Shown piece by piece: positions 186 through 55,343 of a DNA stretch of 64,000 bases. Position 1 is the stretch's first letter, and each line of letters starts with the position of its first letter. Origin of the DNA: Planctomycetota bacterium (GTDB lineage: Bacteria > Planctomycetota > MHYJ01 > JACQXL01 > JACQZI01); NCBI GenBank assembly GCA_016207825.1, contig JACQZI010000005.1:1122-65121 (forward strand), given 5' to 3'. A program made the translations under genes and the position numbers. The notes under the pieces are model-generated. The model did no database searches and had not been told where the DNA came from. It saw nothing but the letters and a program-made list of their open reading frames with translations.

Positions 186-2522
186 TTAAGGCGGCACGCC
201 GATAGCCGTGGCGTTTTCGAATTCTAAATAAGAGCTATCCGCTATCTTCACCCCGGCGCGGGTGCCGCCGCTGATATCGCTCGCCAGTTTATACACGATG
301 TAATAGGTCTTGGGAGTGGTTGTTACCTGCCAGCGGTTCATGTTGAGGTAACACGTGCCGTTGGTAAAATTACCTTTGCTGATAAAAGTATCACCTGCGT
401 CCCAGAAGCCGTTAGTATTCGTATCGCACCAGACCTGGACTTCTATCTTACAGGGTGTATTAACGCCGGTAACACCTTTATCTATGCGGAAACGTCTCCA
501 GCGGGTAGTGCCAGCGCCTATTTGCATATTGAACTTGACATAACAAACAGATTGCCCCATTCTTACCGGAGTATTGCCGTTGGTAAGCATCGTCCATGCG
601 GCTGTGGTGACAAGACTGGCAGGGTCCTCGTTTACAGTAATTGTAATTGCCTTGGAATCAGATAGTGTTTTAGACGTGGCGGTAAAAGTGACCATATAAT
701 TCCCGGATTGCGTACCGGAAGGCGTCCAATTAAATATGCCGCTGGCCAGGTTTAACGTTGCCCCTGTCGGAGTTGCGGTCATAGTATACGTTATCGGGTC
801 ACCATCCGGGTCATTAGCAGAAAGCGTAAAGGTTAATAATTGTTTTTCATTTATGCTCTTGTTTCCCGGCGAGGTCAGAACCGGCGGCCTGTCAACTACA
901 TATCCCACATACCAATAGGCTAATTGCGGGGCAACCGTGGTATTAGAGGTGGACAAGTTCGCCCGGAGTTTTATACCGGTGATACTGGTGAATGTCGCCG
1001 GATAAGCAGATGAAAGATTAGTCCCAGAAGAAACATTAGCAACCAATAGTGAATTATTCGACGAGCTTAAGACATCCACGGTCAAGAGTGTGTTAGCCGG
1101 CACACTGATAGTATAAGTCAAAACGCCCCAGGAAGAGACCACGGACGGCGCAATGGCTGAACCCAGGTAACTACCCGGAGTAAGAAATGGCGCCGTTCCC
1201 ACCACAGCCTTCCAGGTAGTCAAGGCGCCGATTTGGACAGGCGAATAGCGGTCGGTATTTGTCCCATCGCCCAAACTACCCAAACCATTATACCCCCAAG
1301 CCCAGAGCGTGCCGTCGGTCTTGACGGCTAAGTTGTGCTGAGTTCCGCAGGCAACTTGTTTCCAAGTGGTAGCGACGCCGACCTGGACAGGCGAGGTGCG
1401 TTGGGTTGTCGTCCCATCACCTAATTGGCCAGAGTTATTCCATCCCCACGCCCAGAGCGTGCCGTCGGCCTTGACAGCTAAGGTGTGCGCAGCCCCGCAG
1501 GCAACCTTACTCCAGGTGGTCAATGCCCCGATTTGGACAGGCGAGGTTCTTTGAGTGTATGTCCCATCGCCCAATTGGCCATTGAAATTATAACCCCATG
1601 CCCAGAGCGTGCCATCCGTCTTGATTGCCATGGTGTAAACATTCCCGCAGGCAACCTGTTTCCAGGTCGTCCCGGCTACCTGGACCGGTGAAAGCCGCTG
1701 GGTAGTCGTCCCATCGCCTAATTGACCCTGTCCATTATAACCCCAAGCCCAGAGCGTTCCGTCAGTCTTTATTGCTACGGTATGATTACCTCCGCAAGCG
1801 ACCTGTTTCCAGGTCGTTCCGGCTATTTGGACCGGGGACGATCTATTAGTCTGTGTCCCGTCGCCTAATTGGCCATTCCAATTATAACCCCAAGCCCAGA
1901 GCGTGCCGTCGGTCTTGACGGCTAAGGTGAAAGCATTCCCACCGGCGACCTGTTTCCAAGTGGTGAGCGCCCCGACCTGGACGGGCGAGTTTCTTTGAAT
2001 GGTCGTCCCATCACCCAACTGGCCATTAGAATTAAAACCCCAAGCCCAGAGCGTACCGTCGGTCTTGATTGCCATGGTGTGCTGAGCCCCGCAGGCGACC
2101 TTACTCCAGGTGGTCAATGCTCCGATTTGAGTTGGCGTGTTTTTATCAAGATTGTAGAGATAAGCCCCATCTCCGTCGTATTGGGCTGTTCCGCCATGGC
2201 CAAGCTGTCCGTATTCACCATAGCCCCAAGACCAGAGCGTGCCGTCTGTCCGCGGGCAGAGGCTGTGGTAAGCGTTTGCTGCGAGGATAAAGGCGGGCGT
2301 CTCCTGGCTGGTGTCTGATGATAGTGTGACCTCGGCAGAGCCGGCAGTGGCAACAGTATTCGTAAATGTGCCGTCGGTAAAGACGGTTTCGGACCAGCTG
2401 TCGGCAGCCAAATCCCAAGCACCAAATCCCAAACTCCAAATAATTAATAATACACAAAATCCAAAATTCCCCCGACGTGCGCCAGGACTACACTTCGCTT
2501 CGCAAACTTTCGTGTTACGCAT
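186..2522 (-). CDS. Exported paralog 1: signal peptide and 'ADSWSETVF' leader, seven or more RCC1-like beta-propeller blades (WxWGxNxxGQLGDG), then the family's conserved C-terminal module.
   Basis: 778-aa ORF. RCC1 blade motifs are visible. The C-terminal 190 aa align with the ends of ORFs 18158, 20542, 44353, 48731, 50696 and 53061 (…RWRRFRIDKG…CPDSKIEVQVWCDTNTNGFWDTGDTFI…YLEFENATAIGVP). Confidence 0.65.
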   Translation of the reverse strand: MRNTKVCEAKCSPGARRGNFGFCVLLIIWSLGFGAWDLAADSWSETVFTDGTFTNTVATAGSAEVTLSSDTSQETPAFILAANAYHSLCPRTDGTLWSWGYGEYGQLGHGGTAQYDGDGAYLYNLDKNTPTQIGALTTWSKVACGAQHTMAIKTDGTLWAWGFNSNGQLGDGTTIQRNSPVQVGALTTWKQVAGGNAFTLAVKTDGTLWAWGYNWNGQLGDGTQTNRSSPVQIAGTTWKQVACGGNHTVAIKTDGTLWAWGYNGQGQLGDGTTTQRLSPVQVAGTTWKQVACGNVYTMAIKTDGTLWAWGYNFNGQLGDGTYTQRTSPVQIGALTTWSKVACGAAHTLAVKADGTLWAWGWNNSGQLGDGTTTQRTSPVQVGVATTWKQVACGTQHNLAVKTDGTLWAWGYNGLGSLGDGTNTDRYSPVQIGALTTWKAVVGTAPFLTPGSYLGSAIAPSVVSSWGVLTYTISVPANTLLTVDVLSSSNNSLLVANVSSGTNLSSAYPATFTSITGIKLRANLSTSNTTVAPQLAYWYVGYVVDRPPVLTSPGNKSINEKQLLTFTLSANDPDGDPITYTMTATPTGATLNLASGIFNWTPSGTQSGNYMVTFTATSKTLSDSKAITITVNEDPASLVTTAAWTMLTNGNTPVRMGQSVCYVKFNMQIGAGTTRWRRFRIDKGVTGVNTPCKIEVQVWCDTNTNGFWDAGDTFISKGNFTNGTCYLNMNRWQVTTTPKTYYIVYKLASDISGGTRAGVKIADSSYLEFENATAIGVPP

Positions 2523-2537: not shown

Positions 2538-2750
2538 TCATACGGCGGTTTTCTTCCAGTTCACTAAACAGCCATTTTTAAATAAATAATGTTCTTTGGA
2601 ATTAGTTTGCGGGAAGAGATAGATCCATTCTTCTGAAACAGGTTCAGAATCTTTCTTGGGTTTAAGCCATTTAGCCACGGGCTTGCCGCGTAATGCCATA
2701 ATATCATCAGTGGTCAGGGGAAGCATTTTGTTTAATGTTGTTTTATTCAT
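2538..2750 (-). CDS. Small conserved protein of 70 aa, family member 1. It shares the motifs LRGKPxAK…EEWxY…EHYxFxNxxLVxWKKTAV with ORF 43541 and lies between a sigma-54 promoter and a paralog gene.
   Basis: The ORF has a conserved paralog at 43541..43789 and a deletion remnant at 18017..18130. Confidence 0.5.
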   Translation of the reverse strand: MNKTTLNKMLPLTTDDIMALRGKPVAKWLKPKKDSEPVSEEWIYLFPQTNSKEHYLFKNGCLVNWKKTAV

Positions 2751-2865: not shown

Positions 2866-2883
2866 TAGCAAATATCGTGCCAA
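2866..2883 (-). promoter_or_regulatory. Sigma-54 (-24/-12) promoter TGGCACGATATTTGCTATA, driving 2750..2538 and 2522..186.
   Basis: Reverse complement of 2866-2883 is ttggcacgatatttgcta. GG and GC are 12 nt apart, matching the TGGCAC-N5-TTGCW consensus exactly. Three EBP genes lie nearby. Confidence 0.7.
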
Positions 2884-3007: not shown

Positions 3008-5035
3008 TTACCGTTTGGTAACATTAGAGATGGTTATCTTTAATTGTTTTATCTTTTTGGAAAGAGTTGAACGGTCGCTGTTAAGTTGACAAGCCGCTTT
3101 GGTGATATTTCCATTGTTCTTTTTAAGAACTTCTATAATAATACTCTTTTCTATTTCATTACGTAATTCTTTAAGAGGACTATCCGATTTGATAGCAGAT
3201 TGGTTCATATTAATGTAACTCCGGATTGGGTTAGATAGCATTGATTCTTCAATAACATTAACATCCGGATACAATGCGCAGATGCGTTTTATCTCGTTTT
3301 CTAGTTCGCGGATATTGCCGGGCCAGGGGTAGGCGGTGAAAAGCGCTAACGCGCTGGGGGATATGTCAGCCCCGACGTTCGTCGGGACTTCGCTTCGCTC
3401 CGGAATTTCCTTACGGGAAAGAGAGCATTTTCGTAAAAAATGCTGAGCGAGGATGGGAATGTCATCCCCGCGGTCGCGAAGAGGAGGAAGATTGATTATA
3501 ATAGTATTGATACGATAAAACAGGTCTTCCCTGAATAACTTCTGCTTAACCATCTGCTCAATAGTCTGATTAGAGGCAAAGACAAAGCGGGTATCAACCG
3601 GAATAGGTTTTTGTCCACCCACTCTCCAGAGAAGTTTTTCTTCCATAACCCTAAGTAATTTTTGTTGCATAGACGGAGACATATTAGAAATCTCGTCTAT
3701 GAAAAGCGTTCCGCCTGAAGCGAGTTCAATATAACCTTTTTTATCTTCTATAGCGCCGGTAAAAGCGCCTTTGGCATGGCCGAAAAGCGTACTTTCAACA
3801 AGCGTTTCGGGAAGCACCCCGCAATTGAACGGTAAATAGGATTTGTTTATACGCAGGCTATTATTATGTATGGCATTGGCAATAAGTTCTTTTCCGGTTC
3901 CTGTTTCTCCCTGGATTAAAACCGGCATATCCGTAGGAGAAATCTTTTCTATAAGATGATAAATTTCTTGCATTGAGGGGGAATTGCCGACAATGGTATA
4001 TTTATTAACCGAATTTTCGTAACGGTCATCAAGGGTTTGAACCAATATCTGCGGGATAAACCTGGATTCATGTTTGGTTTTACCCTGTAATTGTTGATAG
4101 AGCCTGTCAAATTCCCTGGTTTTTTCATACAGCCAAATCGTATCCAGTTTAGATAAAACAGGCTTTATCCTGTTTTCTATAGAGCTGGCTTTACGCGACA
4201 GCCCTTTAAGAGAATAGCATTTGCATAAAAGGAATCCGGCTTCACAGGCAAGGTTATTTAATTTCAAGCATAATGCTTCTTTCATTATGTCCGGCAAAAT
4301 CCGAAACGCGGAATCCAACTGGTTTTCCAAAAGGTCAATGGCAGCAAGATGTATTTTCGCTTCAAGGATGCCGCGCGGGAAATCCGCTTGCTCGCATGCT
4401 TTAAGGGATATCTGAAAAGACTGGCGTGCCTGGCGATAGTCTTTTATTGACATCAGATACTCGCCTTTAATGTGCATATAATCCATGAAGTATATCTCGC
4501 CGGACGGGGACAGCAGGGAAGGTGAAAGTTTTTGTTCAATAATTTGCCCTGCTTTCCCCAAATCGTTTTTATATAAATAACAATAAGCTAAATTAATCAG
4601 GGTCGAAACATACATTTCCTTATTCATTGGAAACGTGTAACTCGTGAGTTTTTGGCAGTATTGCTCTACTTTATGGAATTGGCTTAAAGCCTGATTGATA
4701 TGCATCATAACCAGGAAATTAAGCCCCATCTTAAACGAAGCATACGCGACGCGAACTTGTTCAAGATTATGTTTTGAAGCGGTTAAGTATGCTTTATAGA
4801 AAGCATCCAGCGAGCGGGCATATTCCGCAAGGCTAAAACAAGCAAATCCCAGATGGCAATATAAAAGGTGTTCTTCAAAAGGCGAATAAGAAAGGGAAGG
4901 GAGTTTCCTTAGCGCCTTTTCGCCCAAACGCTTGGCGTTATCCCAATCCTGTTTATCCAAGGCGGACCTAATTTGTTCCAGACAATCAGATAATGGTTTA
5001 GATTCTCTTCGTTCACTACGAGTGCGTTTTGGCAT
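3008..5035 (-). CDS. Sigma-54-dependent transcriptional activator (EBP) with an N-terminal TPR-like domain, a central AAA+ domain (GETGTGKE Walker A; GAFTGA) and a C-terminal Fis-type HTH. There is no receiver or GAF domain.
   Basis: Motifs are visible in the translation. The true start is probably the ATG (MPKRTRSE) at 5035, because the TTG of the ORF-track start lies inside the -35 box. Confidence 0.85.
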   Translation of the reverse strand: MPKRTRSERRESKPLSDCLEQIRSALDKQDWDNAKRLGEKALRKLPSLSYSPFEEHLLYCHLGFACFSLAEYARSLDAFYKAYLTASKHNLEQVRVAYASFKMGLNFLVMMHINQALSQFHKVEQYCQKLTSYTFPMNKEMYVSTLINLAYCYLYKNDLGKAGQIIEQKLSPSLLSPSGEIYFMDYMHIKGEYLMSIKDYRQARQSFQISLKACEQADFPRGILEAKIHLAAIDLLENQLDSAFRILPDIMKEALCLKLNNLACEAGFLLCKCYSLKGLSRKASSIENRIKPVLSKLDTIWLYEKTREFDRLYQQLQGKTKHESRFIPQILVQTLDDRYENSVNKYTIVGNSPSMQEIYHLIEKISPTDMPVLIQGETGTGKELIANAIHNNSLRINKSYLPFNCGVLPETLVESTLFGHAKGAFTGAIEDKKGYIELASGGTLFIDEISNMSPSMQQKLLRVMEEKLLWRVGGQKPIPVDTRFVFASNQTIEQMVKQKLFREDLFYRINTIIINLPPLRDRGDDIPILAQHFLRKCSLSRKEIPERSEVPTNVGADISPSALALFTAYPWPGNIRELENEIKRICALYPDVNVIEESMLSNPIRSYINMNQSAIKSDSPLKELRNEIEKSIIIEVLKKNNGNITKAACQLNSDRSTLSKKIKQLKITISNVTKR

Positions 5036-5042
5036 GGTTCCA

Positions 5043-5071
5043 TTTATACAAAAAGAAGGGGCGACTGTCAA
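5043..5071 (-). promoter_or_regulatory. Sigma-70-type promoter TTGACA-17-TATAAA, 7 nt upstream of the EBP ATG, giving a leaderless or near-leaderless transcript.
   Basis: Minus-strand reading: cTTGACAgtcgccccttctttttgTATAAAtggaaccATG. The same architecture occurs at the other two EBP genes. Confidence 0.55.
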
Positions 5072-7704: not shown

Positions 7705-7707
7705 TTA

Positions 7708-15710: not shown

Positions 15711-15738
15711 TTGACAATCACCCATTTTTTCTATATAA
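15711..15738 (+). promoter_or_regulatory. Sigma-70-type promoter (TTGACA…TATATAA) for the EBP gene, with a short leader.
   Basis: ttgacaatcacccattttttctatataaccaatatcATG. Confidence 0.5.
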
Positions 15739-15746
15739 CCAATATC

Positions 15747-17771
15747 ATGAAAACCGGAAAGCCTCTATCCGACCAGCCCGACAGCCTGCCTGCCGGAAAG
15801 GCAGGTCTGGCGGGTTACCTGGAACAAATCAAATCCGCCAATACCAAACAAAACTGGATTCAAGTAAAGCGCCTGGGGAAAATCGTTTTAAAAAACCTGC
15901 CTAATCTGGCTTATTCTCCATCCGAAGAATATCTTTTGTTTCGCCGGCTGGGTGTCGCCCATTATCATTTGGCGGAATATTCAAACTCCCTGGACTTTTT
16001 CTACAAAGCATTCCTGGCCGCCTTCAGGCATAAACTCAACCAAGCCGATATCGCCTGCGCGATTTTTATGATGGGAAGCAATTTTATCGCTATCAGGAAT
16101 ATACCGCAAGCCCTGGCTCATTTCCAGAAAGTGGAAGAATACTATAAAAAATACGGGGATAATAATCCTCCGATGGATAAAGATATCTATATTGATACGC
16201 TTTTAAGCCTGGCGTATTGTTATCTATATAAAAATGATACGGAAAAAGCACGTGAGATTATAGAAGAAAAACTTTCTGTTTACCGGCCGGACGCGTTTGA
16301 CGGAATCAGCTTTATAGATTACACCCACCTTAAAGGGGAATATCTGGCGGCAGCCGAAAAATACGCCGATGCCCGTAAATGTTTTGACGAATGTATCACG
16401 ATGGGAAAACAAATTAACTTCCCGGTAAGCATCCTCGAAGCAAAAATACACCTGGCCCTAATTGATATCATGGAAAGCGAAACAGATAGCGGCATCCAAA
16501 CCTTGCGCGCCGTAATGAAAGAAAGCCGGAAGTTAAAGCTAAACGACCTCTTCTGTGAATCAGGGCTCCTTTTAAGCAAATGTTACATCATTCAAGGTCT
16601 TCCCGATAAAGCCGTGCTTATCGAAAACAGGATTAAGCTTAATTTGTCCAAACTTGACACGGTTTGGCTCTATGAAAAAATGCGCGAGTTCGAAAAACTC
16701 TACCGCCAATTAACCACCGTATCGAAAGTCAAATCGCAAATCGCTCCCGAAATACTCGTTCGCACCCTTAATTCACGTTATGAAAAATCACCCCATAAAG
16801 AAATTGTCATAGGCGTCACTCCCTTAATGCAGGAAATCTGGCAACTGTTAGAAAAAATTGCTCCGACCGATTTGCCCGTTTTAATCCAGGGGGAAACCGG
16901 CACGGGAAAAGAACTCATCGCCCGCGCTATCCACCAAAACAGCCTGCGGGCATCCCGTTCCTGCCTCGGATTTAATTCCGGAGCGGTTGCCGAAACTCTT
17001 TTGGAAAGCACGCTTTTCGGCCATGCCAAAGGCGCTTTTACCGGCGCTATTGAAGAGAAAAAAGGCTATATTGAACTCGCCTCCGGCGGAACGCTTTTCG
17101 TGGATGAGATTGCCAATATGTCGCTTGGTATGCAGCAAAAACTTCTAAGGGTCATGGAAGAAAAACTTCTCTGGCGTGTCGGTGACTCAAAACCAATTCA
17201 GATAGATACCCGTTTTATCTTTGCCAGCAATCAGGATATTGAGCAGATGGTCAAGAACAAAACCTTCCGTGAAGACCTGTTCTATCGTATCAACGCCATT
17301 GTAATTAACCTTCCGCCTCTGCGCGAACGCGGGGATGACATTCCCTTGCTGATAAACCACTTCCTCTCCAAATATAAAACGCATGACGCCCAACGCATGA
17401 CGCAAGACTCACAACGCATAACGCCCGACGCACAACGCCTCCTCTCCTCCTACCCCTGGCCCGGCAATATCCGCGAACTGGAAAACGAGATAAAACGTAT
17501 CTGCGTATTATACCCAAATGCAAAAACCATCGAAGAACCAATACTCTCAGATTCAATCAGAAATTATAAAAAAACGCCCGAACCGTTTAAACAAATCTTG
17601 AACATGAAAGAAGCAACTGATGCCTTCCAAAGGAGCCTTATCATCGAAACGATTAGCCAATGCCAGGGCAATATGACCCAAGCCGCCCGCCAGCTCGGCT
17701 ATGCGCGCCAAAGCCTTTACGATAAAATGAAACAGCTTAAGATAACTCCGGAAACTGTCGTGAAAAAGTAA
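15747..17771 (+). CDS. Sigma-54-dependent activator (TPR-AAA+-HTH), paralog 2
   Basis: GETGTGKELIARAIH, GAFTGA and a C-terminal HTH. An (AQRxT)n low-complexity linker lies between the AAA+ and HTH domains. Confidence 0.85.
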   Translation: MKTGKPLSDQPDSLPAGKAGLAGYLEQIKSANTKQNWIQVKRLGKIVLKNLPNLAYSPSEEYLLFRRLGVAHYHLAEYSNSLDFFYKAFLAAFRHKLNQADIACAIFMMGSNFIAIRNIPQALAHFQKVEEYYKKYGDNNPPMDKDIYIDTLLSLAYCYLYKNDTEKAREIIEEKLSVYRPDAFDGISFIDYTHLKGEYLAAAEKYADARKCFDECITMGKQINFPVSILEAKIHLALIDIMESETDSGIQTLRAVMKESRKLKLNDLFCESGLLLSKCYIIQGLPDKAVLIENRIKLNLSKLDTVWLYEKMREFEKLYRQLTTVSKVKSQIAPEILVRTLNSRYEKSPHKEIVIGVTPLMQEIWQLLEKIAPTDLPVLIQGETGTGKELIARAIHQNSLRASRSCLGFNSGAVAETLLESTLFGHAKGAFTGAIEEKKGYIELASGGTLFVDEIANMSLGMQQKLLRVMEEKLLWRVGDSKPIQIDTRFIFASNQDIEQMVKNKTFREDLFYRINAIVINLPPLRERGDDIPLLINHFLSKYKTHDAQRMTQDSQRITPDAQRLLSSYPWPGNIRELENEIKRICVLYPNAKTIEEPILSDSIRNYKKTPEPFKQILNMKEATDAFQRSLIIETISQCQGNMTQAARQLGYARQSLYDKMKQLKITPETVVKK

Positions 17772-23421: not shown

Positions 23422-23480
23422 GTGCCCCGAAATTCTTCGGGGTACCCCCGATTATATCGGGGAGAAAAGGAGAATTGTTT

Positions 23481-41332: not shown

Positions 41333-43360
41333 ATGAAAGATAAGCAATTATCAGAATACCTCGAAAAGATTAGTTCATTCGGGGGAAAAAGCAACTGGCA
41401 AAAAGTAAGGCATCTCGGGGAGACGGCCGTAAAAAAGCTGGCGACACTCCATTACACACCCCAAGAAGAATTTACGCTCTACCGCCAGATGGGACTGGCT
41501 TATTATAATCTGGTGGAATATCCCCGTTCGGTTGATATTTTCTACAAGGCCTATCTGGTAGCCTCGCGCAATTCATTCCCGCCAATACAAGTAGCTTATG
41601 CCCATTACAGCTTAGGGCTTGGTTTTCTTGTAATGCACCACATCAAGCAATCTTTAGCGCAATTACTGAAGGTGGAACAATATTACCAAAAATATGGCGA
41701 TGCGACCCCGCCGATGAACCGGAATAAGTATTATTTCTCACTTATCTATATCGCTCTTTGCCATCTCTATAATAATGAAATAGACAAAGCACGGGAGGTA
41801 ATCGAACAGAAACTTGCCGGCCCGATGGAAACAGAATCGAACGGCATTATTTTAAATAGTTATCATCACCTGAAAGGCGAATATGCCTACGCCATAAAAG
41901 ATTATGTCGCATCCCGCAAGGCTTTCAACGAATGCGTTAAAATCAGCGAGGAGTTCAAATTCCCGCGCGGCATCCTGGAAGCAAAGGTGCATATAGTCAC
42001 CCTTGATATCCTGGAAGGACATTTGGATTCTGCCGTCCGGCTGGCAACCAGTATCTTTCAAGACGCCCGCCGGATAAAATATAACGAACTCGTTTGCGAA
42101 GCCGGATTGCTTTTAAGTAAATGTTATTCCCTCTTCCGCCAGCCGAACAAGGCGCAGGCAATCGAAAAACGTATCAAACCGCTTTTACGGAAACTGGACA
42201 TCATCTGGTTTTATGAAAAAACCCGGGAGTTTGAACTGCTCTATCAACAAATGGAAACAAGCGTCAATTTACCGCAGGCAATGCATCCCGATACTGCGAG
42301 CCGGGAGACGTGGCTGACCCGGACAAAACCACTGCCGGAAGTGCTTGCCCAGGCGATTAACCACTGTTCCGCGCAAATGCCTTATAAAAGTGTGATTATC
42401 GGTAATGCACCGCCGATGCGGGAGGTTTGCCAGTTGATTAATCGGATTGGCCCGACCGACCTGCCCGTTTTAATCCAGGGGGAAACCGGGACGGGCAAGG
42501 AACTTGTGGCCCACGCGGTTCACCACCTCCATAATCTGCGTTCATCCAAACCGTTATTAGCTTTTAATTGCGGGGCTTTCCCGGAGACCCTGATTGAAAG
42601 CGAACTCTTCGGGCATACCAAAGGCGCCTTTACGGGGGCAAGCGAGAAAAAGAAAGGCTATATTGAACTGGCGTCCGGGGGATCGCTTTTTATGGATGAG
42701 GTCGCCAATATGTCTTCATCAATGCAACAGAAACTATTGCGGGTCCTGGAAGAAAAACAAGTTTGGCCGCTGGGGGCGGAAAAAGCGATTCCTATCAATA
42801 CCCGCTTTATTTTTGCTTCCAACCGAAACCTTGACAACTTAGTCCGCCAGAAACTTTTCCGGGAAGACTTGTTCTACCGGATTAATACAATTGTCATTAC
42901 TCTTCCATCCCTGCGTGACCGCAAGGACGATATCCCTTTGCTAATCCAGCACTTCCTTGCTAAATATTCTCCTAAAGACGCACGACACAGTGCGCAGCCT
43001 CCCGTAGGGATAACGCAGGACGCACAACGCCTCCTCACCACCTATTCCTGGCCAGGAAATGTAAGAGAACTGGAAAATGAGGCCAAAAAGATTTGCGTGC
43101 TGTATCCTGATGCCAAATTAATCAAAGACGATATGCTTTCCGATGCTATCCGGGCTTGCAAACCAACCAGTGAATATTTATCAAACAACAGATTAACCTT
43201 AAAAGAACAGAGGGCAGACTGGGAACGGAATACCATCAAAGAAACCATAAAAAAATGCTCCGGCAATATCACCAAAACCGCCTCCCGGTTAGGATTAGAC
43301 CGTTCCGGCTTATACAAAAAAATGCGGGAATTAAACATCCCGTTCAAAGATGTAGACTAA
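41333..43360 (+). CDS. Sigma-54-dependent activator (TPR-AAA+-HTH), paralog 3
   Basis: GETGTGKELVAHAVH, GAFTGA, HTH. A TTGACA promoter lies about 35 bp upstream. Confidence 0.85.
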   Translation: MKDKQLSEYLEKISSFGGKSNWQKVRHLGETAVKKLATLHYTPQEEFTLYRQMGLAYYNLVEYPRSVDIFYKAYLVASRNSFPPIQVAYAHYSLGLGFLVMHHIKQSLAQLLKVEQYYQKYGDATPPMNRNKYYFSLIYIALCHLYNNEIDKAREVIEQKLAGPMETESNGIILNSYHHLKGEYAYAIKDYVASRKAFNECVKISEEFKFPRGILEAKVHIVTLDILEGHLDSAVRLATSIFQDARRIKYNELVCEAGLLLSKCYSLFRQPNKAQAIEKRIKPLLRKLDIIWFYEKTREFELLYQQMETSVNLPQAMHPDTASRETWLTRTKPLPEVLAQAINHCSAQMPYKSVIIGNAPPMREVCQLINRIGPTDLPVLIQGETGTGKELVAHAVHHLHNLRSSKPLLAFNCGAFPETLIESELFGHTKGAFTGASEKKKGYIELASGGSLFMDEVANMSSSMQQKLLRVLEEKQVWPLGAEKAIPINTRFIFASNRNLDNLVRQKLFREDLFYRINTIVITLPSLRDRKDDIPLLIQHFLAKYSPKDARHSAQPPVGITQDAQRLLTTYSWPGNVRELENEAKKICVLYPDAKLIKDDMLSDAIRACKPTSEYLSNNRLTLKEQRADWERNTIKETIKKCSGNITKTASRLGLDRSGLYKKMRELNIPFKDVD

Positions 43361-43487: not shown

Positions 43488-43503
43488 TGGCACGTTATTT
43501 GCT
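43488..43503 (+). promoter_or_regulatory. Sigma-54 promoter TGGCACGTTATTTGCTATA
   Basis: Same core as the other three. Confidence 0.65.
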
Positions 43504-44352: not shown

Positions 44353-45702
44353 ATGGGTAAATTAACCATTGGTGTTCTTGTCATCGTCTTTATCATCTCT
44401 GGCTCTCTCCACGCCGAAACGTTTATTGAAAACTTTTCGACCACCACCAACAAAGACGCCGGCAACACTACGGCTAACTGGGATACCGCAACCGGTCTTT
44501 TAAAACTTCCGGGAAGCGGTGCGACATCCGAAAAACCTTTAAGCACGAATACATTCCCTACTTCATCCCTTGCCGCTGTTTATGAAATAGGTTGGCGATT
44601 TATCCCTCAAGTCAATGGTCAAATCACCGCCTTAGGCAGATATGATGATGCGTCTCATAATAATACTATTATTACGTTGTGGAACGATTCGGGCGGACAA
44701 CTGGCCCAGGTAACGGTGGTAAACAGCGCCGGATGGTCATGGGCGGCCTTAGGTACACCGGTCAATGTAACGGCCGGCACTGCTTACCGGGTAAGCCTTT
44801 GGTGTTCGACTGGCTATAAATACGGCGCATGGGCTCAACCACAAATCAGAGGAAATATCCAAATAACCTCATATTGTTATCTTGTGAATACCCATGCGTA
44901 TCCTAACCTTACGGGGACAGGCTATATGTACGGAGTCCCTGATATAGAATTCACTGTTGGTGGCGGTTACCAAACACCTAAAACCGGACAATCTACAAAA
45001 ATCAATACAACCTTCGATACCATTCAGGCGGTTAACCTGTCCGTTTCAGGTACTCTGCCGGCGAATACCGCCATTACTTATGAAATCACCGCCAACGCCG
45101 GGACAAACTGGTATCAAATCACGCCGACCGCGCAAGGGAATGAATTTATTATTCCTCAAGTCGGCAGGGGAAACGACCTTAGGTGGCGCGCGAATTTATC
45201 TACTGCTAATACCAACGTTACGCCGTCCTTGGACCAATTAATAATCACTTATTATACAGGCAGCGCTTTAGTCACCACCACCAACTGGACGGGTTTGGTT
45301 AATACGAATCCGATTAAAATGGGTCAATCAATTGCTTATATCAAGTTTGATGCCAAAACCGATTCAGGAACCGCATGTTGGAAGCGTTTTCGTGTTGATA
45401 AAGGGCTGAAAACATACACAAACTCTGCCTGCCCGGATAATAAGATTGAAGTCCAGGTTTGGTGTGATACAAATACCAACGGCTTCTGGGATACCGGCGA
45501 TACGTTTATCGCCAAAGGTAATTTTACTAACGGCACTTGTTACCTCAATATGAACCGCTGGCAGGTAACGACCACCTCTAAAACATATTACATCGTGTAT
45601 AAGCTTGCTAATGATATTGGAGGTGGTCAACGTGCCGGGGTAAGCGTGAAAGATAGTAGTTATCTTGAGTTCGAGAATGCTACATGTGTAGGTGTTCCGT
45701 AA
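44353..45702 (+). CDS. Exported paralog 4: signal peptide, a DUF4082-like domain (GWRFIPQVNGQITALGRYDD…) and the conserved C-terminal module
   Basis: The C-terminal 190 aa belong to the family (…YLEFENATCVGVP*). Confidence 0.6.
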   Translation: MGKLTIGVLVIVFIISGSLHAETFIENFSTTTNKDAGNTTANWDTATGLLKLPGSGATSEKPLSTNTFPTSSLAAVYEIGWRFIPQVNGQITALGRYDDASHNNTIITLWNDSGGQLAQVTVVNSAGWSWAALGTPVNVTAGTAYRVSLWCSTGYKYGAWAQPQIRGNIQITSYCYLVNTHAYPNLTGTGYMYGVPDIEFTVGGGYQTPKTGQSTKINTTFDTIQAVNLSVSGTLPANTAITYEITANAGTNWYQITPTAQGNEFIIPQVGRGNDLRWRANLSTANTNVTPSLDQLIITYYTGSALVTTTNWTGLVNTNPIKMGQSIAYIKFDAKTDSGTACWKRFRVDKGLKTYTNSACPDNKIEVQVWCDTNTNGFWDTGDTFIAKGNFTNGTCYLNMNRWQVTTTSKTYYIVYKLANDIGGGQRAGVSVKDSSYLEFENATCVGVP

Positions 45703-48730: not shown

Positions 48731-50596
48731 ATGGGAAAGAAATGGATAATAGGAAATTCCCCTCTATCAAGAGGGGTTAGGGGTGTGTTATTTCTCTGTG
48801 TTCTTTGTGCCTTTGTGGTGCCGTCTTTGGCGAGCCTCGCCCCGATGGGCGGGAATCTCTACGCCGATAGCTGGTCACAAACCACCTTCCCGGCCGGGAC
48901 GGGTGTTTTTACCAGCACCCAACCGGCTAACGGAAATGCCGATGCTACACTATCCAATGCTTTTAACGTGGATTCCGGAACAGGTGCGGATGGCGCGTTT
49001 GATTCTTCCACATATAACGGAAGTTCTATTGCCGGTATTTCCGGAACCGCTCCTAATATAACTATAAATACCAGCAATGCAACTAAACTGGGCACGTATA
49101 ACTTCACCACATTTACCATTGCCGCAGGGCATACGGTTACAGCTAATGGAACTAACTTTTTAATTATTAAAGCAACCGGAAATGTAACGATTAGCGGGAC
49201 TTTAAATGGCAGCGGCAGTAATGGACAAGATGGTTCCACTACCGGACAAGCGGCAGGCGGTGGCGGCGGCGGCGCAGTGAAAATATTGTCCGCCGGAAAT
49301 ATTACCATAAATGCCGGTGGATTTATTCTGGCTAATGGGGGAAACGGAGGAAATGTTGATAATAACTACCCCAATACTCCAGGCGGGCCTGGTGGTCCGG
49401 GTGGTGGCACCGGCGGCGCGGGATGTGGCTACGGCGGAGTATCAGGCGGCAGACCAGGAACTGGATCCGGTCCCGGTGGCGGTGGCTGGACTGCTGGCGG
49501 TGGCGGCGGCGGTTATGGTGGCGCTGGAGGAGTTGGTGGCGGCTCGGCAGGAGTTACTTATGGAGCGGCTGATTTAGCCACCTTATACGGAGGCAGCGGC
49601 GGCGGCGGCGGATGCACAGGTAACGGAGGCGGAGGCGGCGGCAGTGGCGGAAGCATCTTCTTAACCTCTGGTAATGTAACTATTTCAGGTTTTGTCAGGG
49701 CAAATGGCGGTAATGGCGTGGCTTCTACTAACGGAGGAGGAGGCGGCGGAAGAATCAGAGTGGAATCGCCCACGATTACCGGTTTAGCCAATTGCACTGC
49801 CAACGGCGGTACCGGGGTCCCTAACAACGGCGCGGCTGGCACCATTTCATCTTCTACAGGAGGAGGCGGTTATGCGGCTTCAGGAACTTATCTTTCCCCG
49901 CTAATTAATCCTTCCGGACTTGTTTCCTGGGGTGCATTGACATATACTAAAAACACACCTGCCAATACAACGCTTACTATCGATGTTCTGAAAGCTGATG
50001 ATAATTCTGTTTTATCTAGTAACGTTACTTCCGGCACCAATTTATCATCCCTTATTCCAGCGTATACATTTATTAAACTTAGAGCTAATTTTTCATCTAC
50101 AAATCCTTCCAACACTTCAACACTTTCAGATTGGGGAATAAATTATACGGGTGGAGGCACAACTGTAACCACCTCAAACTGGACGGATTTGACTCAAGGG
50201 AAAGCCGTTCAAATGGGACAATCAACCGCTTATGTGAAATTTACCATGAAAACCGAATCCGGGACGACCCGCTGGAAACGTTTTCGCATTGATAAAGGAT
50301 TAAAAACATATACAAATATCGCCGCGCCGGACAGTAAAATAGAAATCCAGGTTTGGTGTGAAACTAGTGGCAATGGATTCTGGGATTCCGGAGATACGCT
50401 TATCAGTAAAGGCAACTTTGTTAACGGCACGTGCTGGCTTAATATGAAACGCTGGGAGATAACAACAACGCCTAAAACTTATTATATTGTATATAAACTC
50501 AAAGACGATATCGGTGGCGGACAACGTGCTGGAGTAAAAATAACTAATTCAAGTTATTTAGAGTTTGAAAATGCTACTTGCGTCGGCGTTCCTTAG
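48731..50596 (+). CDS. Exported paralog 5: 'PLSRGVRGVL' plus 'ADSWSQTTFP' leader, a Gly-rich centre and the conserved C-terminal module
   Basis: Family alignment. Confidence 0.65.
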   Translation: MGKKWIIGNSPLSRGVRGVLFLCVLCAFVVPSLASLAPMGGNLYADSWSQTTFPAGTGVFTSTQPANGNADATLSNAFNVDSGTGADGAFDSSTYNGSSIAGISGTAPNITINTSNATKLGTYNFTTFTIAAGHTVTANGTNFLIIKATGNVTISGTLNGSGSNGQDGSTTGQAAGGGGGGAVKILSAGNITINAGGFILANGGNGGNVDNNYPNTPGGPGGPGGGTGGAGCGYGGVSGGRPGTGSGPGGGGWTAGGGGGGYGGAGGVGGGSAGVTYGAADLATLYGGSGGGGGCTGNGGGGGGSGGSIFLTSGNVTISGFVRANGGNGVASTNGGGGGGRIRVESPTITGLANCTANGGTGVPNNGAAGTISSSTGGGGYAASGTYLSPLINPSGLVSWGALTYTKNTPANTTLTIDVLKADDNSVLSSNVTSGTNLSSLIPAYTFIKLRANFSSTNPSNTSTLSDWGINYTGGGTTVTTSNWTDLTQGKAVQMGQSTAYVKFTMKTESGTTRWKRFRIDKGLKTYTNIAAPDSKIEIQVWCETSGNGFWDSGDTLISKGNFVNGTCWLNMKRWEITTTPKTYYIVYKLKDDIGGGQRAGVKITNSSYLEFENATCVGVP

Positions 50597-50695: not shown

Positions 50696-52984
50696 ATGCG
50701 CCACATGAAAGTTTGTAACTTTGGATTTTGGGGATTGATAATTATTTGGAGTTTAGCAATTGTAAATTGTGATTTGGGTGCCGATACCTGGCTGCAAACG
50801 ACTTTTCCGCCCGAGACAGGAACGTTCAATAACACCTCGCCGGCTAACTCTGATAATGATATAATTCTTACCAGTTCAGTTGCGATTAATGTTGGTACCG
50901 GTTCTGATGGTGCAATAACCGTTGCCGCGGCAAAAAATATTAATACGGATACCATTGCCGCCGGCAGGACTGTCGCCGATGGCTGGAACTCACGCGTTTC
51001 CGCCCTTACGGCAAATACAGCGACTCTTGTAGATGCACCACCGGCTAATACTTTTAACGTGGGGGATGAGGTTATTCTAATATCACTTAAAGGGATATCC
51101 ACTGCTTCTTCTAATGTCGGACTCTATGAATTTCTCCGCGTTCAATCGGTCGCAGGGAATATCCTAACTTTTACGACCAATAAGGTCAATTGGTATGGGG
51201 ATGGAGCTAACGATACCAATGTTGGAACGAATCAAAAAGTAATGGTCCAGCGTGTTCCGAATTATACAGATGTAACGATTAATTCAGGCGGATCGCTCAC
51301 TTGTAATGCTTTTAATGGAACGAAAGGCGGAATTCTGGCATTTCGCGCTAAAGGAACCGTGACAGTTAATGTTTCCAATGGAATTAGTGCTACTGGAAAA
51401 GGATTTGTAGGAGGCACCGGCGTCGCTTATACCGCAAATGCCGGAGGCGGCGAATCCTATAACGGAACCGGCGGAATAGGCGGCCCTTATAACGGCGGAG
51501 GAAGCCCCGGCCAGGGCGGCGGCGGCGGCGGCGGCGATAATAACGGCTCTGTTTTTGCTGGAGGCGGTGGAGCGCTTGGTTCCGGTGGCGGTGGCGGCGG
51601 CGGGGCAGGAGCAGGCGGCGGTTATATTGCCAGAGGAGGAGGCGGCGGAGGCGGCGGACACGGGAATAACAGTTTCGGAATGGGCGGCGCTGGCATTAAC
51701 TCGGGAGGAAACGGGACAACAACATCAGGAGGCGCCGGCGCAATCGCGGCAAGGTCAGGCTCCAGCGATAACGGCGGCGGAGCGGGCGGCGGCGGTTATG
51801 ACGGCAGGGCGGATTCTTCCGGACTCAATACACGGGCGTATATGGGCGGCGGCGGCGGCGCAGGCGGCGGCGCGACTAACTTAAATAATTTAGGCGACGC
51901 CAAAACAGGCGCTAACGGAGGAATCGGAGGCGGCATCATTATTATTTATGCATCCTTCATTAATATTACAACGGGAGCTTCTATGACCGCCAATGGCAAC
52001 AACGGCGCGAATGGTGCAAGCGGCACATATGGACGAGGAGGAGGCGGCGGGGGCGGTGCCGGAGGTTCTATTATAATATTAGCAACTCAAATAATCAACT
52101 CAGGCAACATTACTGCTGATAAAGGGAACGGAGGAACAACGACGGATGGATACACCGGCGGTGCCGGCGGCAATGGCAGAATCTACGCACGCTATGTTTC
52201 TTTCAGCGGTAATAATCCTACCCCGAATTACTATAGCCTTGCAATACCTTATATTACGCCTGGTAGTTATATTTCCCCGGCGCTTATTCCAACTGGCGTT
52301 TCTTATTGGGGTGTCTTAAAATATTCGGTAACATCACCCACTAATACCGCCTTAACCGTGGATGTAATCAGCTCATCTAACAATTCATTATTAGTTGCAA
52401 ATGTGCCTTTTGGAACAGACCTTAAAGCCGCTTACCCTGCGACATTTGTAAATATTACGGGAATAAAACTTAGGGCGAATTTCTCTGCCGCAGATACAAC
52501 CAAAACCCCGTCTTTGTCTTACTGGCAGCTGGAATACGCCACGGGCACTGCAGTCACCACCACTAACTGGACGGATTTGCTTAATGGGAAATCAATTCAA
52601 ATGGGGCAATCAATCGCTCATGTTAAATTCAATATGAAAACCGAGGCAGGAATAACCAAATGGCGCCGTTTTCGGGTTGATAAAGGAGTAAAAACATATA
52701 CCAATATCGCCTGCCCGGATAGCAAAATAGAAGTCCAGATCTGGTGTGAAAATACCGGTAACGGATTCTGGGACATTGGCGATACGTTTATCTCTAAAGG
52801 CATCTTCGGCAATGGAATATGCTATCTTAATATGAAAGGCTGGGAGGTAACAACGACATCAAAAACATATTATATTGTCTATAAGCTATCAGGGGATGTC
52901 GGCGGAGGACAGCGTGCCGGCGTTAAAATAACAGATAGCAGTTATCTAGAATTCGAAAACGCAACTTGCGTCGGCGTTCCTTAG
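50696..52984 (+). CDS. Exported paralog 6: Gly-rich centre; contains a 116-bp tract identical to paralog 2
   Basis: GGAG-6-ATG (MRHMKVC) aligns with MRNTKVC of paralogs 1 and 2. Confidence 0.65.
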   Translation: MRHMKVCNFGFWGLIIIWSLAIVNCDLGADTWLQTTFPPETGTFNNTSPANSDNDIILTSSVAINVGTGSDGAITVAAAKNINTDTIAAGRTVADGWNSRVSALTANTATLVDAPPANTFNVGDEVILISLKGISTASSNVGLYEFLRVQSVAGNILTFTTNKVNWYGDGANDTNVGTNQKVMVQRVPNYTDVTINSGGSLTCNAFNGTKGGILAFRAKGTVTVNVSNGISATGKGFVGGTGVAYTANAGGGESYNGTGGIGGPYNGGGSPGQGGGGGGGDNNGSVFAGGGGALGSGGGGGGGAGAGGGYIARGGGGGGGGHGNNSFGMGGAGINSGGNGTTTSGGAGAIAARSGSSDNGGGAGGGGYDGRADSSGLNTRAYMGGGGGAGGGATNLNNLGDAKTGANGGIGGGIIIIYASFINITTGASMTANGNNGANGASGTYGRGGGGGGGAGGSIIILATQIINSGNITADKGNGGTTTDGYTGGAGGNGRIYARYVSFSGNNPTPNYYSLAIPYITPGSYISPALIPTGVSYWGVLKYSVTSPTNTALTVDVISSSNNSLLVANVPFGTDLKAAYPATFVNITGIKLRANFSAADTTKTPSLSYWQLEYATGTAVTTTNWTDLLNGKSIQMGQSIAHVKFNMKTEAGITKWRRFRVDKGVKTYTNIACPDSKIEVQIWCENTGNGFWDIGDTFISKGIFGNGICYLNMKGWEVTTTSKTYYIVYKLSGDVGGGQRAGVKITDSSYLEFENATCVGVP

Positions 52985-53060: not shown

Positions 53061-55343
53061 ATGAGAATAAGTAATTGGAAATTGATTGTGGGCACGTTCT
53101 TTTTCCTTTGTGTTTTTGTAATTAATCATCTTCATGCCGATACCTGGTCGCAAACAACTTTCCCGATAGGGACAGGAGTATTTAGCGATACCTCTCCGGC
53201 TGATTTTGACAATGATGTAAAACTAATCGGCACTCTTGTAATTGATGCCGGTAACGGTGCAGATGGACCTTGGACTATTTCCACATCTGTTAATATTAAT
53301 GTGAATACCAATGGAAATGGTGGACGGACCGCACCTGATGGTATTAACTGGCAGGTCAATCAGAATGTTGTTTCAGGACAGGCTGTTATATCATCAGGAA
53401 TAGCCGTTCCTACCGGATTTGCCGTCGGTGATGAGATTATTATAATTAACCTCAAAGGCGCTTCCGGAAATTATGCTAATGTCGGCTTATATGAATTCAA
53501 ACGAATTTCTGTAGTTGCCGCTAATTCAATTACTGTCACTTCTAACTTGACTAATTCTTATGATGGAACAACCCAAAAAATAATGGTCCAGCGAATTCCT
53601 AACTACACTAATGTAACAATTGATACAGGAGGTTCTTTGACCTGCAATGCATGGAATGGAACTCTTGGTGGCGTCCTCGCTTTTAGGGCAAACGGGACAG
53701 TAACAGTTAATGTGGCTAATGGAATTAATGCTAATGGTAAAGGGTTTACCGGGGGCACAGGCACAACATATGATGCTAATGCCGGTGGAGGAGAATCTTA
53801 TAACGGTGCAGCCGGCAGCGGAGGAAAAGGCAATCCCGTATCTGTAGGAAATAGCGGACAGGGTGGTGGTGGTGGCGCAGGTGATACTAACTCTGATGCG
53901 ACCCAGCGTGCCGGAGGAACCGGTACAATCGGTTCCGGAGGCGGCGGGGCCGGCGCTTGCTGGACTAACAGTAACTTCAGCAGCTTTGCTGGAGGAGGAG
54001 GTGGTGGTGGACATGGTTCTGCTGGAGGAGGAGGCAGCAGCGGCTCTGCTAACGGACAAACACCAACCGGTTCTCAGGGAGGTAGTGGCTTAAACAATGG
54101 TGGCGCATCAGGTAGCACCAGTGGCGGGGCCGCACAATATGGCGGCGGCGGTGGTGGTGGCGGTTATGACGGCAGAGCAGATTCTTCCGGCCTTAATACA
54201 CGGGCGTATATGGGCGGAGGCGGCGGTGCCGGCGGCGCGGTATGTAATACGAATTACGGTACTTCAAGAAATGGAGCTTCGGGCGGTTCAGGCGCAGGTA
54301 TTATTTTTATCAGCGCTAATACGCTTAACACCGCTTCAGGGGCATCTATTACCGCCAACGGAGCTAATGGGTCTTCTGCGTCTACTGCAACAGGTTCATT
54401 TCCGGGTGCCGGAGGTGGCGGCGCCGGAGGCTCTATTATCTTATATGCAATGACGGTAAACAATAGTGGTAATATCATAGCTAATGGAGGCACTGGAGGA
54501 ACGGTACAATATGCCGGCGGCAATGGCGGCGGAGGAAGAACATTTGCTGCGTATAATTCTTTTAATGGGGCTGCGCCTACGCCTAATTATTCAAGCGGGA
54601 CACTGCTAATGGGATACTCTTCATCCGGCACATACATTTCTCCTTTAATTAATCCAACCGGACTTGTTTCTTGGGGGGTCTTAACTTATACTAAAAATAC
54701 ACCTGCCGATACAACTTTTACCGTTGATGTCTTAAAAGCAGAAGATAATTCTGTATTAGTTGCCAATGTCGCTTCGGGGACTAATTTGGCATCTGTTATT
54801 CTTAACTATACTCTTATTAAACTCCGGGCAAATTTAGCTACTTCGAATCCGATAGCAACTTCCACGCTTTCAGATTGGGGAATAATTTATACAGGAGGAG
54901 GCACAACTGTTACAACTACAAACTGGTCAGATTTGCTTAACGGAAAATCAGTTCAAATGGGCCAATCAATAGCTCACGTAAAATTTGAGATGAAAACTCT
55001 GTCAGGAACAGCGCGCTGGAAAAGATTTAGAATTGACAAGGGATTGAAAACATATACAAATATTGCTTGTTCTGATTCTAAAATAGAGACACAGGTGTGG
55101 TGCGAAAATAATAATAATGGTTTTTGGGATATCGGCGATACGTTTATCAGTAAAGGTAATTTTACCAATGGTACCGTGTATCTCAATATGAACCGCTGGG
55201 AGGTAACGACAATACCTAAAACGTATTATATTGTATATAAACTCAAAAATGATATCGGCGGCGGACAACGTGCCGGCGTTAAAATAACCGATAGCAGTTA
55301 TCTTGAGTTCGAGAACGCCATGTGTGTTGGAGTACCACCATAA
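53061..55343 (+). CDS. Exported paralog 7: Gly-rich centre and the conserved C-terminal module
   Basis: Family alignment. Confidence 0.65.
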   Translation: MRISNWKLIVGTFFFLCVFVINHLHADTWSQTTFPIGTGVFSDTSPADFDNDVKLIGTLVIDAGNGADGPWTISTSVNINVNTNGNGGRTAPDGINWQVNQNVVSGQAVISSGIAVPTGFAVGDEIIIINLKGASGNYANVGLYEFKRISVVAANSITVTSNLTNSYDGTTQKIMVQRIPNYTNVTIDTGGSLTCNAWNGTLGGVLAFRANGTVTVNVANGINANGKGFTGGTGTTYDANAGGGESYNGAAGSGGKGNPVSVGNSGQGGGGGAGDTNSDATQRAGGTGTIGSGGGGAGACWTNSNFSSFAGGGGGGGHGSAGGGGSSGSANGQTPTGSQGGSGLNNGGASGSTSGGAAQYGGGGGGGGYDGRADSSGLNTRAYMGGGGGAGGAVCNTNYGTSRNGASGGSGAGIIFISANTLNTASGASITANGANGSSASTATGSFPGAGGGGAGGSIILYAMTVNNSGNIIANGGTGGTVQYAGGNGGGGRTFAAYNSFNGAAPTPNYSSGTLLMGYSSSGTYISPLINPTGLVSWGVLTYTKNTPADTTFTVDVLKAEDNSVLVANVASGTNLASVILNYTLIKLRANLATSNPIATSTLSDWGIIYTGGGTTVTTTNWSDLLNGKSVQMGQSIAHVKFEMKTLSGTARWKRFRIDKGLKTYTNIACSDSKIETQVWCENNNNGFWDIGDTFISKGNFTNGTVYLNMNRWEVTTIPKTYYIVYKLKNDIGGGQRAGVKITDSSYLEFENAMCVGVPP

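Follow-up and report, generated by a model that had tools for sequence, protein, structure and literature searches.

The 64,000-nucleotide stretch of DNA from a groundwater planctomycete considered here (contig JACQZI010000005.1, positions 1,122 to 65,121, the whole of which is called the window in what follows) carries seven genes whose products end in the same C-terminal module, preceded by central domains of several quite different kinds. A first-pass annotation made from the sequence alone had proposed that seven open reading frames (ORFs) share such an ending, and on this point everything agrees: all seven are present at their coordinates, with uninterrupted translations of 449–820 amino acids (aa), their C-termini align, and a six-frame scan of the window with a hidden Markov model (HMM) finds exactly seven copies of the terminal module, together with six copies of a second module, X (described below), and no fragments or remnants of the module anywhere in the 64 kb.

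Domain organisation of the seven proteins

Member A (186..2522, minus strand, 778 aa) comprises a signal peptide, the N1 motif ADSWSETVF, an RCC1 propeller, X (nucleotides (nt) 888-1196), a He_PIG domain and the terminal module, or C-module (nt 189-620), the named domains here and below being those found in Pfam and NCBIfam scans. The other six members lie on the plus strand. Member B (18158..20485, 775 aa) runs from a signal peptide through N1 and a Gly-rich domain to X (19742-20050) and the C-module (20042-20482); its product is GenBank HY811_00715, annotated there from an internal Met as a protein of 708 aa. Member C (20542..23004, 820 aa) is the one without X, its signal peptide being followed by a DUF2341-type N-terminus, Laminin_G_3, DUF2341, an unassigned region and the C-module (22546-23001). 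Member D (44353..45702, 449 aa) has a signal peptide, an N2 motif, DUF4082, a variant of X (44953-45267) and the C-module (45262-45699). The remaining three, E (48731..50596, 621 aa, HY811_00835), F (50696..52984, 762 aa, HY811_00840) and G (53061..55343, 760 aa, HY811_00845), each have a signal peptide, N1, a Gly-rich domain (a short one in E), X (at 49856-50161, 52235-52549 and 54600-54905 respectively) and the C-module (50153-50593, 52544-52981 and 54897-55340). For members C to G, identical proteins stand in GenBank under a metagenome-assembled genome (MAG) deposited as 'Planctomycetes bacterium' with HY811_ locus tags, C being MBI4833330 (P0016 in the sequence set used here) and D being MBI4833350 (P0011).

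As regards the central parts, which had been described as unrelated, the assignments to RCC1, LamG with DUF2341, DUF4082 and Gly-rich types stand, but the Gly-rich members number four (B, E, F and G) rather than three, and they are not independent of one another, B, F and G being paralogous along most of their length and all four being plain paralogues over long stretches. Their Gly-rich regions weakly resemble the N-terminal domain model of AgmC (for B, F and G the central regions match NCBIfam gliding_AgmC_N with E-values of 1e-13 to 1e-15 and 50-55 bits, below the cut-off of 275), while those of two relatives, P0018 and P0019, are matched by the Pfam model for a glycine-rich domain known from ALK/LTK receptors (ALK_LTK_GRD); in view of these matches, the Gly-rich heads may be ordered folds of the polyglycine type instead of disordered linkers.

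At all seven N-termini there are hydrophobic stretches that would suit Sec signal peptides, as had been proposed (Kyte-Doolittle maximum over 19 residues 1.8–2.6). The two sequence tags said to occur in most of them are more restricted, 'PLxRGVRGVL' being confined to C and E and N1 (the 'ADSWSQTTF'-type motif) to A, B, E, F and G, where it follows the predicted cleavage site. At the other end of the proteins, which read ...ENATC(V/I)GVP, there is neither a transmembrane segment (19-residue maximum 0.28–1.12 over the last 150 aa of all seven) nor a basic tail, and the earlier opinion that these are not LPXTG or PEP-CTERM proteins is thus upheld, since such sortase and exosortase signals consist of a motif, a transmembrane helix and a basic tail.

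Short palindromes encode part of the n-regions in the signal peptides (18200-18250, about 2440-2475 on the minus strand, 20568-20601 and 48757-48790): TCCCGAC...GTCGGG yields 'SPDARRG', and CCCCTC..GAGGGG yields 'PLxRGVRGVL'. Hairpins resembling repetitive extragenic palindromes seem to have been absorbed into coding leaders here; similar hairpins, of the form TCCCGC..GCGGGA, fill the intergenic DNA of a metagenome contig that carries a related gene (Ga0315282_10025968, below called L002).

The common part of the seven proteins had been put at 190–300 aa, but this figure combines two things. The terminal domain itself has about 145 aa, and what appears to extend it is X, a separate module of about 100 aa that stands ahead of the terminal domain in six members, all but C. 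Its signature is GTYxSxLINPTGLxSWGVLTYT..PANT..TVDVL...IKLRANxST..TP.LS.W, and in A the Ig-like He_PIG domain is interposed between X and the terminal domain. Every complete member examined that has X also has either N1 or N2 (the latter being 'F.E.FSTT.YKD...T.A.W.T..G'), and the DUF2341-type members have neither; such a pairing would fit a scaffold that runs from the signal peptide through N1 or N2, the head and X to the terminal module.

The terminal module

In a multiple alignment the last 145 aa or so, from 'TTNWTDL' to 'GVP(P)', are the sole region common to all seven proteins. Over this region the other six are 68–80% identical to B, and 63 columns are invariant. Synonymous substitutions between the seven C-modules are saturated (dS, the number per synonymous site, ranges from 0.9 to more than 4 and is incalculable for several pairs), while the corresponding non-synonymous value, dN, is 0.13–0.34, giving dN/dS ratios of 0.03–0.18. 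Saturation of dS together with such low ratios implies long-standing purifying selection on the protein sequence of the module, and the saturated synonymous sites rule out recent gene conversion or a duplication in the assembly as the source of the shared tail. A low-complexity artefact or a chance resemblance is likewise ruled out, the 63 invariant columns belonging to a tail that is not rich in Gly; on examination the family does not dissolve into unrelated proteins. Three motifs invariant in the family (RFRIDKG, KIEVQVW and SSYLEFENA) go beyond what is conserved in the wider repeat family to be described below.

The statement that the module corresponds to no named domain has also held good. 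No match was found in Pfam-A (E≤0.1) or NCBIfam (E≤1), sequence searches of the PDB using either a single sequence or a 59-sequence profile returned nothing meaningful, and searches of the literature revealed no description of the family. Judged by sequence, then, the terminal module is an unnamed domain family that is new to current libraries.

Predicted fold and the likeness to CBM93

When AlphaFold2 was given the seven paralogues alone the resulting model was mediocre, with a predicted local distance difference test score (pLDDT) of 63. A second run, using the last 250 aa of B and an alignment of 59 sequences that included both single-copy modules and the tandem copies discussed in the next section, gave a pLDDT of 86.8 overall and block means of 94–98 over most of the terminal domain, and in this predicted structure the module is a jelly-roll, that is, an all-beta sandwich. 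A Foldseek comparison of the model with the PDB, of the kind proposed in the first-pass annotation, returned sialidases of the Bacteroidetes type as all of its nine best matches, among them Tannerella forsythia NanH and Bacteroides thetaiotaomicron BTSA; the best has an E-value of 5.8e-5 and a probability of 1.0, which at a sequence identity of about 8–10% is a weak match. Other solved structures nearby are CBM6, CBM32 (both families of carbohydrate-binding modules, CBMs) and DOC-type domains. The aligned part of the sialidases is presumably their N-terminal non-catalytic domain, CBM93. That domain, which is Pfam PF14873 (BNR_assoc_N), binds sialoglycans and also occurs together with Laminin_G_3 (PMC9472817).

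The module as predicted, like CBM93, appears to be an antiparallel beta-sandwich some 150 aa in length. Some of the diverged tandem copies give weak hits with the PF14873 HMM: it matches four out of 30 giant proteins (best whole-protein E-value 6.4e-8) and two out of 59 isolated domain copies (best E-value 0.0054), residues 1172-1237 of the protein P0031 being one tandem copy that is weakly recognised. The proteins of the window, on the other hand, are unmatched by PF14873 in the Pfam scan even at E≤0.1, and the positions differ, CBM93 being N-terminal on a GH33 sialidase whereas the module is C-terminal behind non-catalytic heads. The module is accordingly treated here as a new family with a remote link to CBM93 that is unproven.

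The best-conserved feature of the superfamily, and a hallmark of the module family, is a loop of the form D/E-x-N/D-x-N/D-G-x-[W/F]-D-x-x-D, in which the last Asp is invariant in all 59 copies; from its pattern it would be an EF-hand-like (DxDxDG) calcium site. A relationship to GEVED domains (matched by 11 of the 59 copies, best E-value 0.013) was considered and rejected, the matches being taken to reflect the shared D-x-N-x-N-G loop alone.

Distribution and architectures of the wider family

An exhaustive HMMER search with an HMM built from the seven modules of the window, run against 1.84 billion cluster representatives, yielded 226 representatives at E≤1e-3, of which 107 reach E≤1e-10, the repeats covering profile positions of roughly 18–140. 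(A word-indexed homologue search under-reports the family, giving just eight matches, none longer than about 400 aa; scans of genome and metagenome contigs gave four loci, and look-ups for exact copies of D and of the protein P0001 gave none.) Domains were mapped on 150 listed matches out of the 226, and the counts of architectures given here refer to these.

Three architectures can be distinguished. About 35 proteins, among them all the members from the HY811 genome and relatives from metagenomes, have a single copy ending 0–6 residues before the C-terminus: in some 25 close relatives the protein ends in GVP, 0–1 residues after the module, and in about ten more distant ones it ends in NF, after 3–6 residues. 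Their heads include DUF2341 (in 11 proteins), Kelch propellers, LamG, RCC1, DUF4082, ALK_LTK_GRD, CarboxypepD_reg and BNR, and domain scans of these 35 or so proteins revealed no recognisable catalytic domain. A second architecture, seen in a few proteins, has LamG and DUF2341 followed by the module and then by about 170 aa of HEAT repeats. In the third, which accounts for about 100 of the 150, there are 2–15 internal tandem copies, mostly in proteins of 1,000–7,000 aa; copies sampled from these are about 20–28% identical to the modules of the window, and all five of the tandem-repeat proteins that bear an organism name come from Elusimicrobia MAGs.

The repeats of the giant Elusimicrobia proteins (for instance PJA12304.1, OGR42482.1 and MBI4395893.1) are homologous to the module, with HMM E-values of 1e-45 to 1e-10 and a common consensus of GQ...W..R.DK...V..W.D.N.NG..D.GDT.I..G.F..G...L....TT..TYYIV. 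They differ in arrangement, in that 2–15 internal copies are followed by fn3 and FlgD_ig or Por_Secre_tail, as against the one conserved terminal copy of the window proteins. Among 30 tandem-repeat proteins that were scanned, FlgD_ig was found in 11, Por_Secre_tail in six and CHU_C in four; all three are Pfam families of C-terminal sorting domains of the kind used in type IX secretion (T9SS), so that about a third or more of this sample end in such a domain. From the existence of internal and tandem homologues it follows that the module is a globular domain of the ordinary sort, able to take any position in a protein. The counterparts of the 'GVP' end seen in the window are the '(N/G)FP' at the close of every tandem copy and the '..NF' end of the sister clade; 'GVP' is the end of the last strand, and the proteins thus simply stop at a domain boundary.

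Paralogues elsewhere in the genome and exchange of heads

A genome-wide count of proteins ending in the module, which had been suggested as a check, gives at least 21 for the HY811 MAG, the seven of the window being joined by 14 on seven other contigs. These are HY811_03760, HY811_03765, HY811_03845, HY811_04000, HY811_04045, the neighbouring MBI4833977, and HY811_04550; HY811_06660 (in which the module is truncated) and HY811_06670; HY811_08635; HY811_11220 and HY811_11515 (both partial) and HY811_11540; and MBI4835194. The terminal modules of 18 HY811 paralogues are 57–84% identical, with a median of 72%.

That the genes are mosaics follows from a comparison of A with B. The region from promoter to ATG is 97% identical between them, apart from a 99-bp deletion, and the first 210 coding bases are 85% identical, yet the centres are unrelated. 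On a neighbour-joining tree of the terminal modules (a short tree, without support values) the classes of head are interspersed, D with its DUF4082 head grouping with the Gly-rich B, and the Kelch protein HY811_06670 with P0174 (HY811_03765), while the two DUF2341 members cluster together. Several exchanges of heads would fit this pattern.

Genomic setting and putative sigma-54 control

In the GTDB representative Ca. Brocadiia bacterium DeMMO3_52 the PNPase is 94% and the DinB 82% identical to those of the window, from which the organism of the window can be taken to be a close relative of DeMMO3_52 within its class. The two genes are adjacent in DeMMO3_52, about 240 bp apart (7873-11286 of its contig, L001), whereas in the window 14.3 kb lies between them (region 41333-55343), holding the third of the activator genes described below, D, a PD40 gene, a UbiA-family gene, E, F and G, the last three coming after the PD40 and UbiA-family genes with short gaps. 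With the interval filled here and closed there, the cluster behaves as an insertion or variable island.

Three paralogous genes for sigma-54 enhancer-binding proteins, all with a TPR-like N-domain, a Sigma54_activat AAA+ domain and HTH_8, accompany the family genes. Paralogue 1 (3008..5071, minus strand) is directly upstream of a promoter and A; paralogue 2 (15711..17771, plus strand), 56% identical to paralogue 1, is directly upstream of a promoter and B-C; and paralogue 3 (41333..43360, plus strand), about 50% identical to the others, is directly upstream of a promoter, small ORFs and D. The first of these predicted -24/-12 promoters, TGGCACGATATTTGC at 2868..2882 on the minus strand, is separated by 126 nt from the stop codon of activator 1 and by 346 nt from the ATG of A; the same sequence, TGGCACGATATTTGC, recurs at 17897..17911 (plus strand), with activator 2 ending 126 nt before it and the ATG of B 247 nt beyond it, and TGGCACGTTATTTGC is found at 43488..43502 (plus strand), 128 nt downstream of activator 3 and in front of the small ORFs and D. 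These three and a fourth copy, described below, share the core TTGGCACG(A/T)TATTTGCTATA and agree exactly with the pattern sought, TGGCAC-N5-TTGC with its -24 GG and -12 GC. This pattern has 14 matches when up to one mismatch is allowed, against 3.65 expected, and in none of 100 shuffles was the figure of 14 reached.

Small ORFs lie between promoter and family gene. In the unit of A, activator and promoter are followed by a 70-aa ORF and then by A itself; in that of B and C, a decayed small ORF takes this place; and in that of D, an 82-aa ORF and a 189-aa ORF come between promoter and gene. The 70-aa ORF (2538..2750, minus strand) is conserved and ends in WKKTAV, the 82-aa ORF (43541-43789, plus strand) is its paralogue, and the decayed copy (about 18017-18150, plus strand), which lies in the leader of B, is broken by the internal 99-bp deletion. 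Their consensus is '..L(T/S)TDD...LRGKP.AK....EEW.Y....EHY.F.N..LV.WKKTAV', with neither a signal peptide nor a Pfam match. The layout of activator gene and promoter suggests sigma-54-dependent transcription of the three clusters of the window.

A fourth copy of the promoter (11793-11807, plus strand) precedes an operon of DOMON/fn3 proteins. This operon (11793-15683) encodes three DOMON-domain proteins, two of them also containing fn3, and a DUF5777 beta-barrel protein, and it is probably co-regulated with the family genes.

Possible functions of the module

What emerges from the foregoing is a large set of paralogues, exported multidomain proteins of a non-enzymatic kind, in which exchangeable heads are combined with a constant and hitherto unnamed terminal jelly-roll. 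Such an assembly is of a known kind, namely modular surface proteins with a common constant domain, although this particular domain family has had no name until now, and its membership in a wider family of repeat domains with a CBM-like fold makes it less surprising than it might otherwise have been. As to the role of the constant tail, the explanation preferred here, which is offered tentatively and with something just short of an even chance of being correct, is that it serves as a calcium-stabilised, lectin-like module for attachment or assembly behind the variable heads. This is because the heads are of binding types with no enzyme among them, the tail is kept by all, and the nearest structural relatives bind glycans; a jelly-roll with a remote likeness to CBMs favours a role in attachment or as a lectin over one as a secretion signal or effector. 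The proteins would be exported by Sec, the tail would then fix different heads to one and the same component of the envelope (a glycan or a partner protein), and the cell could in this way display alternative surface proteins.

There are several points on the other side. Binding of a glycan or of the envelope is a function that we infer for the module, and a location outside the cell is likewise deduced solely from the signal peptides and the types of domain present. The homologous domain in the giant proteins looks like a stalk or spacer repeat, and the terminal copy could be merely structural. Finally, at two other HY811 loci of the family (L006 and L007) there is no activator, no promoter of the type described above and no array of 21-bp repeats such as those considered in the last section; the idea of the sigma-54 cassette as a family-wide feature had therefore to be rejected, the cassette being a property of the clusters in the window rather than of the family.

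The first-pass annotation had seen in these proteins a cargo with a common sorting or anchoring (or effector) domain. The architecture is as it supposed, but internal and tandem homologues argue against a sorting tag, and the CBM-like jelly-roll against an effector. A C-terminal secretion or sorting domain would be the analogue of the T9SS C-terminal domains (CTDs), served by an outer-membrane machine of its own and perhaps removed or covalently attached afterwards, and there are points of resemblance: CTDs (PF18962/TIGR04183 and PF13585/TIGR04131) are also folded beta-sandwiches at the extreme C-terminus of many unrelated exported proteins, just as the module recurs within a single genome on at least 21 exported proteins that otherwise differ, is invariably at the extreme C-terminus in the 25 or so GVP relatives, and has its three invariant motifs in excess of what the wider family conserves. 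T9SS is, though, found mainly in Bacteroidota and the FCB group. As the first-pass annotation had already concluded, the module is not a T9SS CTD, since the seven window proteins have no match to Por_Secre_tail, CHU_C or the NCBIfam sorting-signal models (Pfam E≤0.1, NCBIfam E≤1); it is a jelly roll of about 145 aa, whereas a CTD is an Ig-like sandwich of about 70–100 aa, and its homologues can be internal or tandem in proteins that end in a genuine T9SS-type domain of their own, or can precede HEAT repeats. Nor does the dedicated secretion or sorting locus that might have been looked for nearby materialise: among the genes of the 64-kb window there are none recognisable for secretion, sorting, a translocon or a sortase-like enzyme, and none for the T9SS machinery (PorK/L/M/N, Sov/SprA, PorU/V). 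A sorting role thus seems decidedly improbable. Fairly unlikely, too, is that the module is a lectin or CBM directed not at the cell's own envelope but at some external substrate, such as a polysaccharide, the surface of another cell or a mineral-associated polymer. The nearest solved structures are indeed CBMs (the sialidases with their N-terminal CBM93, CBM6 and CBM32), CBM93 binds glycans (PMC9472817), and the heads, too (LamG, DUF4082, propellers), resemble adhesins or lectins, but CBMs normally go with catalytic domains, of which the members have none that can be recognised, and a protein made entirely of binding parts would have no evident tie to the cell.

A more prosaic possibility is that the module is an ordinary spacer rigidified by calcium, and stands last by descent, an ancestral gene having been duplicated and its N-terminal parts later replaced. 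The tandem arrays of the giant proteins do suggest a stalk, B, E, F and G are plain paralogues, and the DUF2341-type members cluster on the tree of C-modules. Against this, no other part of the proteins is better conserved than the module (57–84% identity among the 18 paralogues, with saturated dS), which has been kept through repeated exchanges of heads while the neighbouring X is dispensable, and a lone spacer at the terminus has no obvious structural job; this explanation is, on balance, rather improbable. The dockerins of cellulosomes also invite comparison, having a constant C-terminal module with EF-hand-like calcium loops on many paralogues that carry different functional domains. A dockerin is, however, a helical module of about 70 aa with two EF-hand-like loops, whereas the present module is a beta-sandwich with one loop, and the window proteins are unmatched by the HMMs for dockerin (PF00404) and cohesin (PF00963). 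Cohesin arrays offer a parallel to the tandem arrays of beta-sandwiches of about 140 aa on giant surface proteins that is conceptual only, and as the single-copy and tandem forms of the module are found in different phyla, they cannot be partners.

Planctomycetes and uncultured groundwater bacteria encode many large exported proteins annotated as 'hypothetical', and how these are retained at the surface is poorly understood. In the boldest version of attachment, which on present evidence is doubtful, the module would be a new surface-display device of Planctomycetota, with at least 21 interchangeable heads on one envelope receptor, N1 and X as the two halves of a split scaffold that receives the head cassettes, and the paralogous sigma-54 activators choosing the set of heads on show; it would then play the part taken elsewhere by T9SS CTDs, dockerins or SLH domains. 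What is already available is a delimited family of 226 cluster representatives with a confident structural model and a diagnostic loop of calcium type. Should the module prove to be a handle for attachment or sorting, the surface proteome of this lineage could be predicted by a simple rule, and the module could also serve as a handle for surface display; should it be a mere structural repeat, there would still be a useful domain definition, and annotation for some 200 protein clusters.

Repeat arrays and other observations

Near-identical elements of 340–450 bp adjoin, on the 3' side, the stop codons of C (23005-23450) and D (45703-46045), each consisting in order of hairpins, a ribosome-binding site (RBS; AAAGGAGGTG) with GTG, an array of 21-bp repeats and an end hairpin, CCCCGAAATTCTTCGGGG. 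The array 3' of C has 15 copies (23106..23427, plus strand) and that 3' of D has nine (45833-46020), and both read as (QGQNLCP)n heptads, the heptad ORF after D being fused in frame to the PD40 gene (45824-47086). A different array, of 21/42-bp units, lies 3' of A (1-156).

On L002, positions 4856-6175 hold a fragment of a module gene ending ...ENATVIGVPP, which is followed by a 21-bp array (unit GGGGGAACTCCCTCCAACTCA, about ten copies, where an RBS and TTG give (GGTPSNS)n) and then by a gene for a 230-aa protein that is 46% identical to the window ORF 23475-24173 and has no Pfam match; an array and a gene of this 230-aa type after a module gene look like a conserved neighbourhood. Just upstream of the module gene on the same contig (212-3797) is a diversity-generating retroelement, with a reverse transcriptase containing IGNLTSQ (2718-3797), an Avd-like ORF of the four-helix-bundle type (1601-1987), a target protein of 453 aa ending ...GLRGGYWGSTATNLQVSYRYVAGWTGAGRDNVVGFRPA, and an Asn-rich template copy at about 2476-2751. 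On another contig (L005, 10001-10387) a chimeric ORF of 128 aa, P0008, has an N-terminal part like that of a family of 232-aa ORFs ('EPTPRGKIELVPYIFLKAL') and, as its last 36 aa, the closing part of the C-module ('GGGQRAGVKVADSSYLEFENATAIGVPP'); P0008 is a remnant of recombination or else a chimera of the assembly.

The window also encodes two large exported proteins without the C-module, of 1193 aa (29002-32583) and 1072 aa (33361-36579), which contain fn3 and FIMAH, with Sel1 and He_PIG in addition in the shorter one, and which show partial paralogy with one another and, by way of fn3, with the DOMON proteins. Six tandem copies of an AT-rich 44-bp repeat occupy intergenic DNA at 58760-59031, and an 83-bp direct duplication at 39945-40121 lies just upstream of dinB and overlaps its start.

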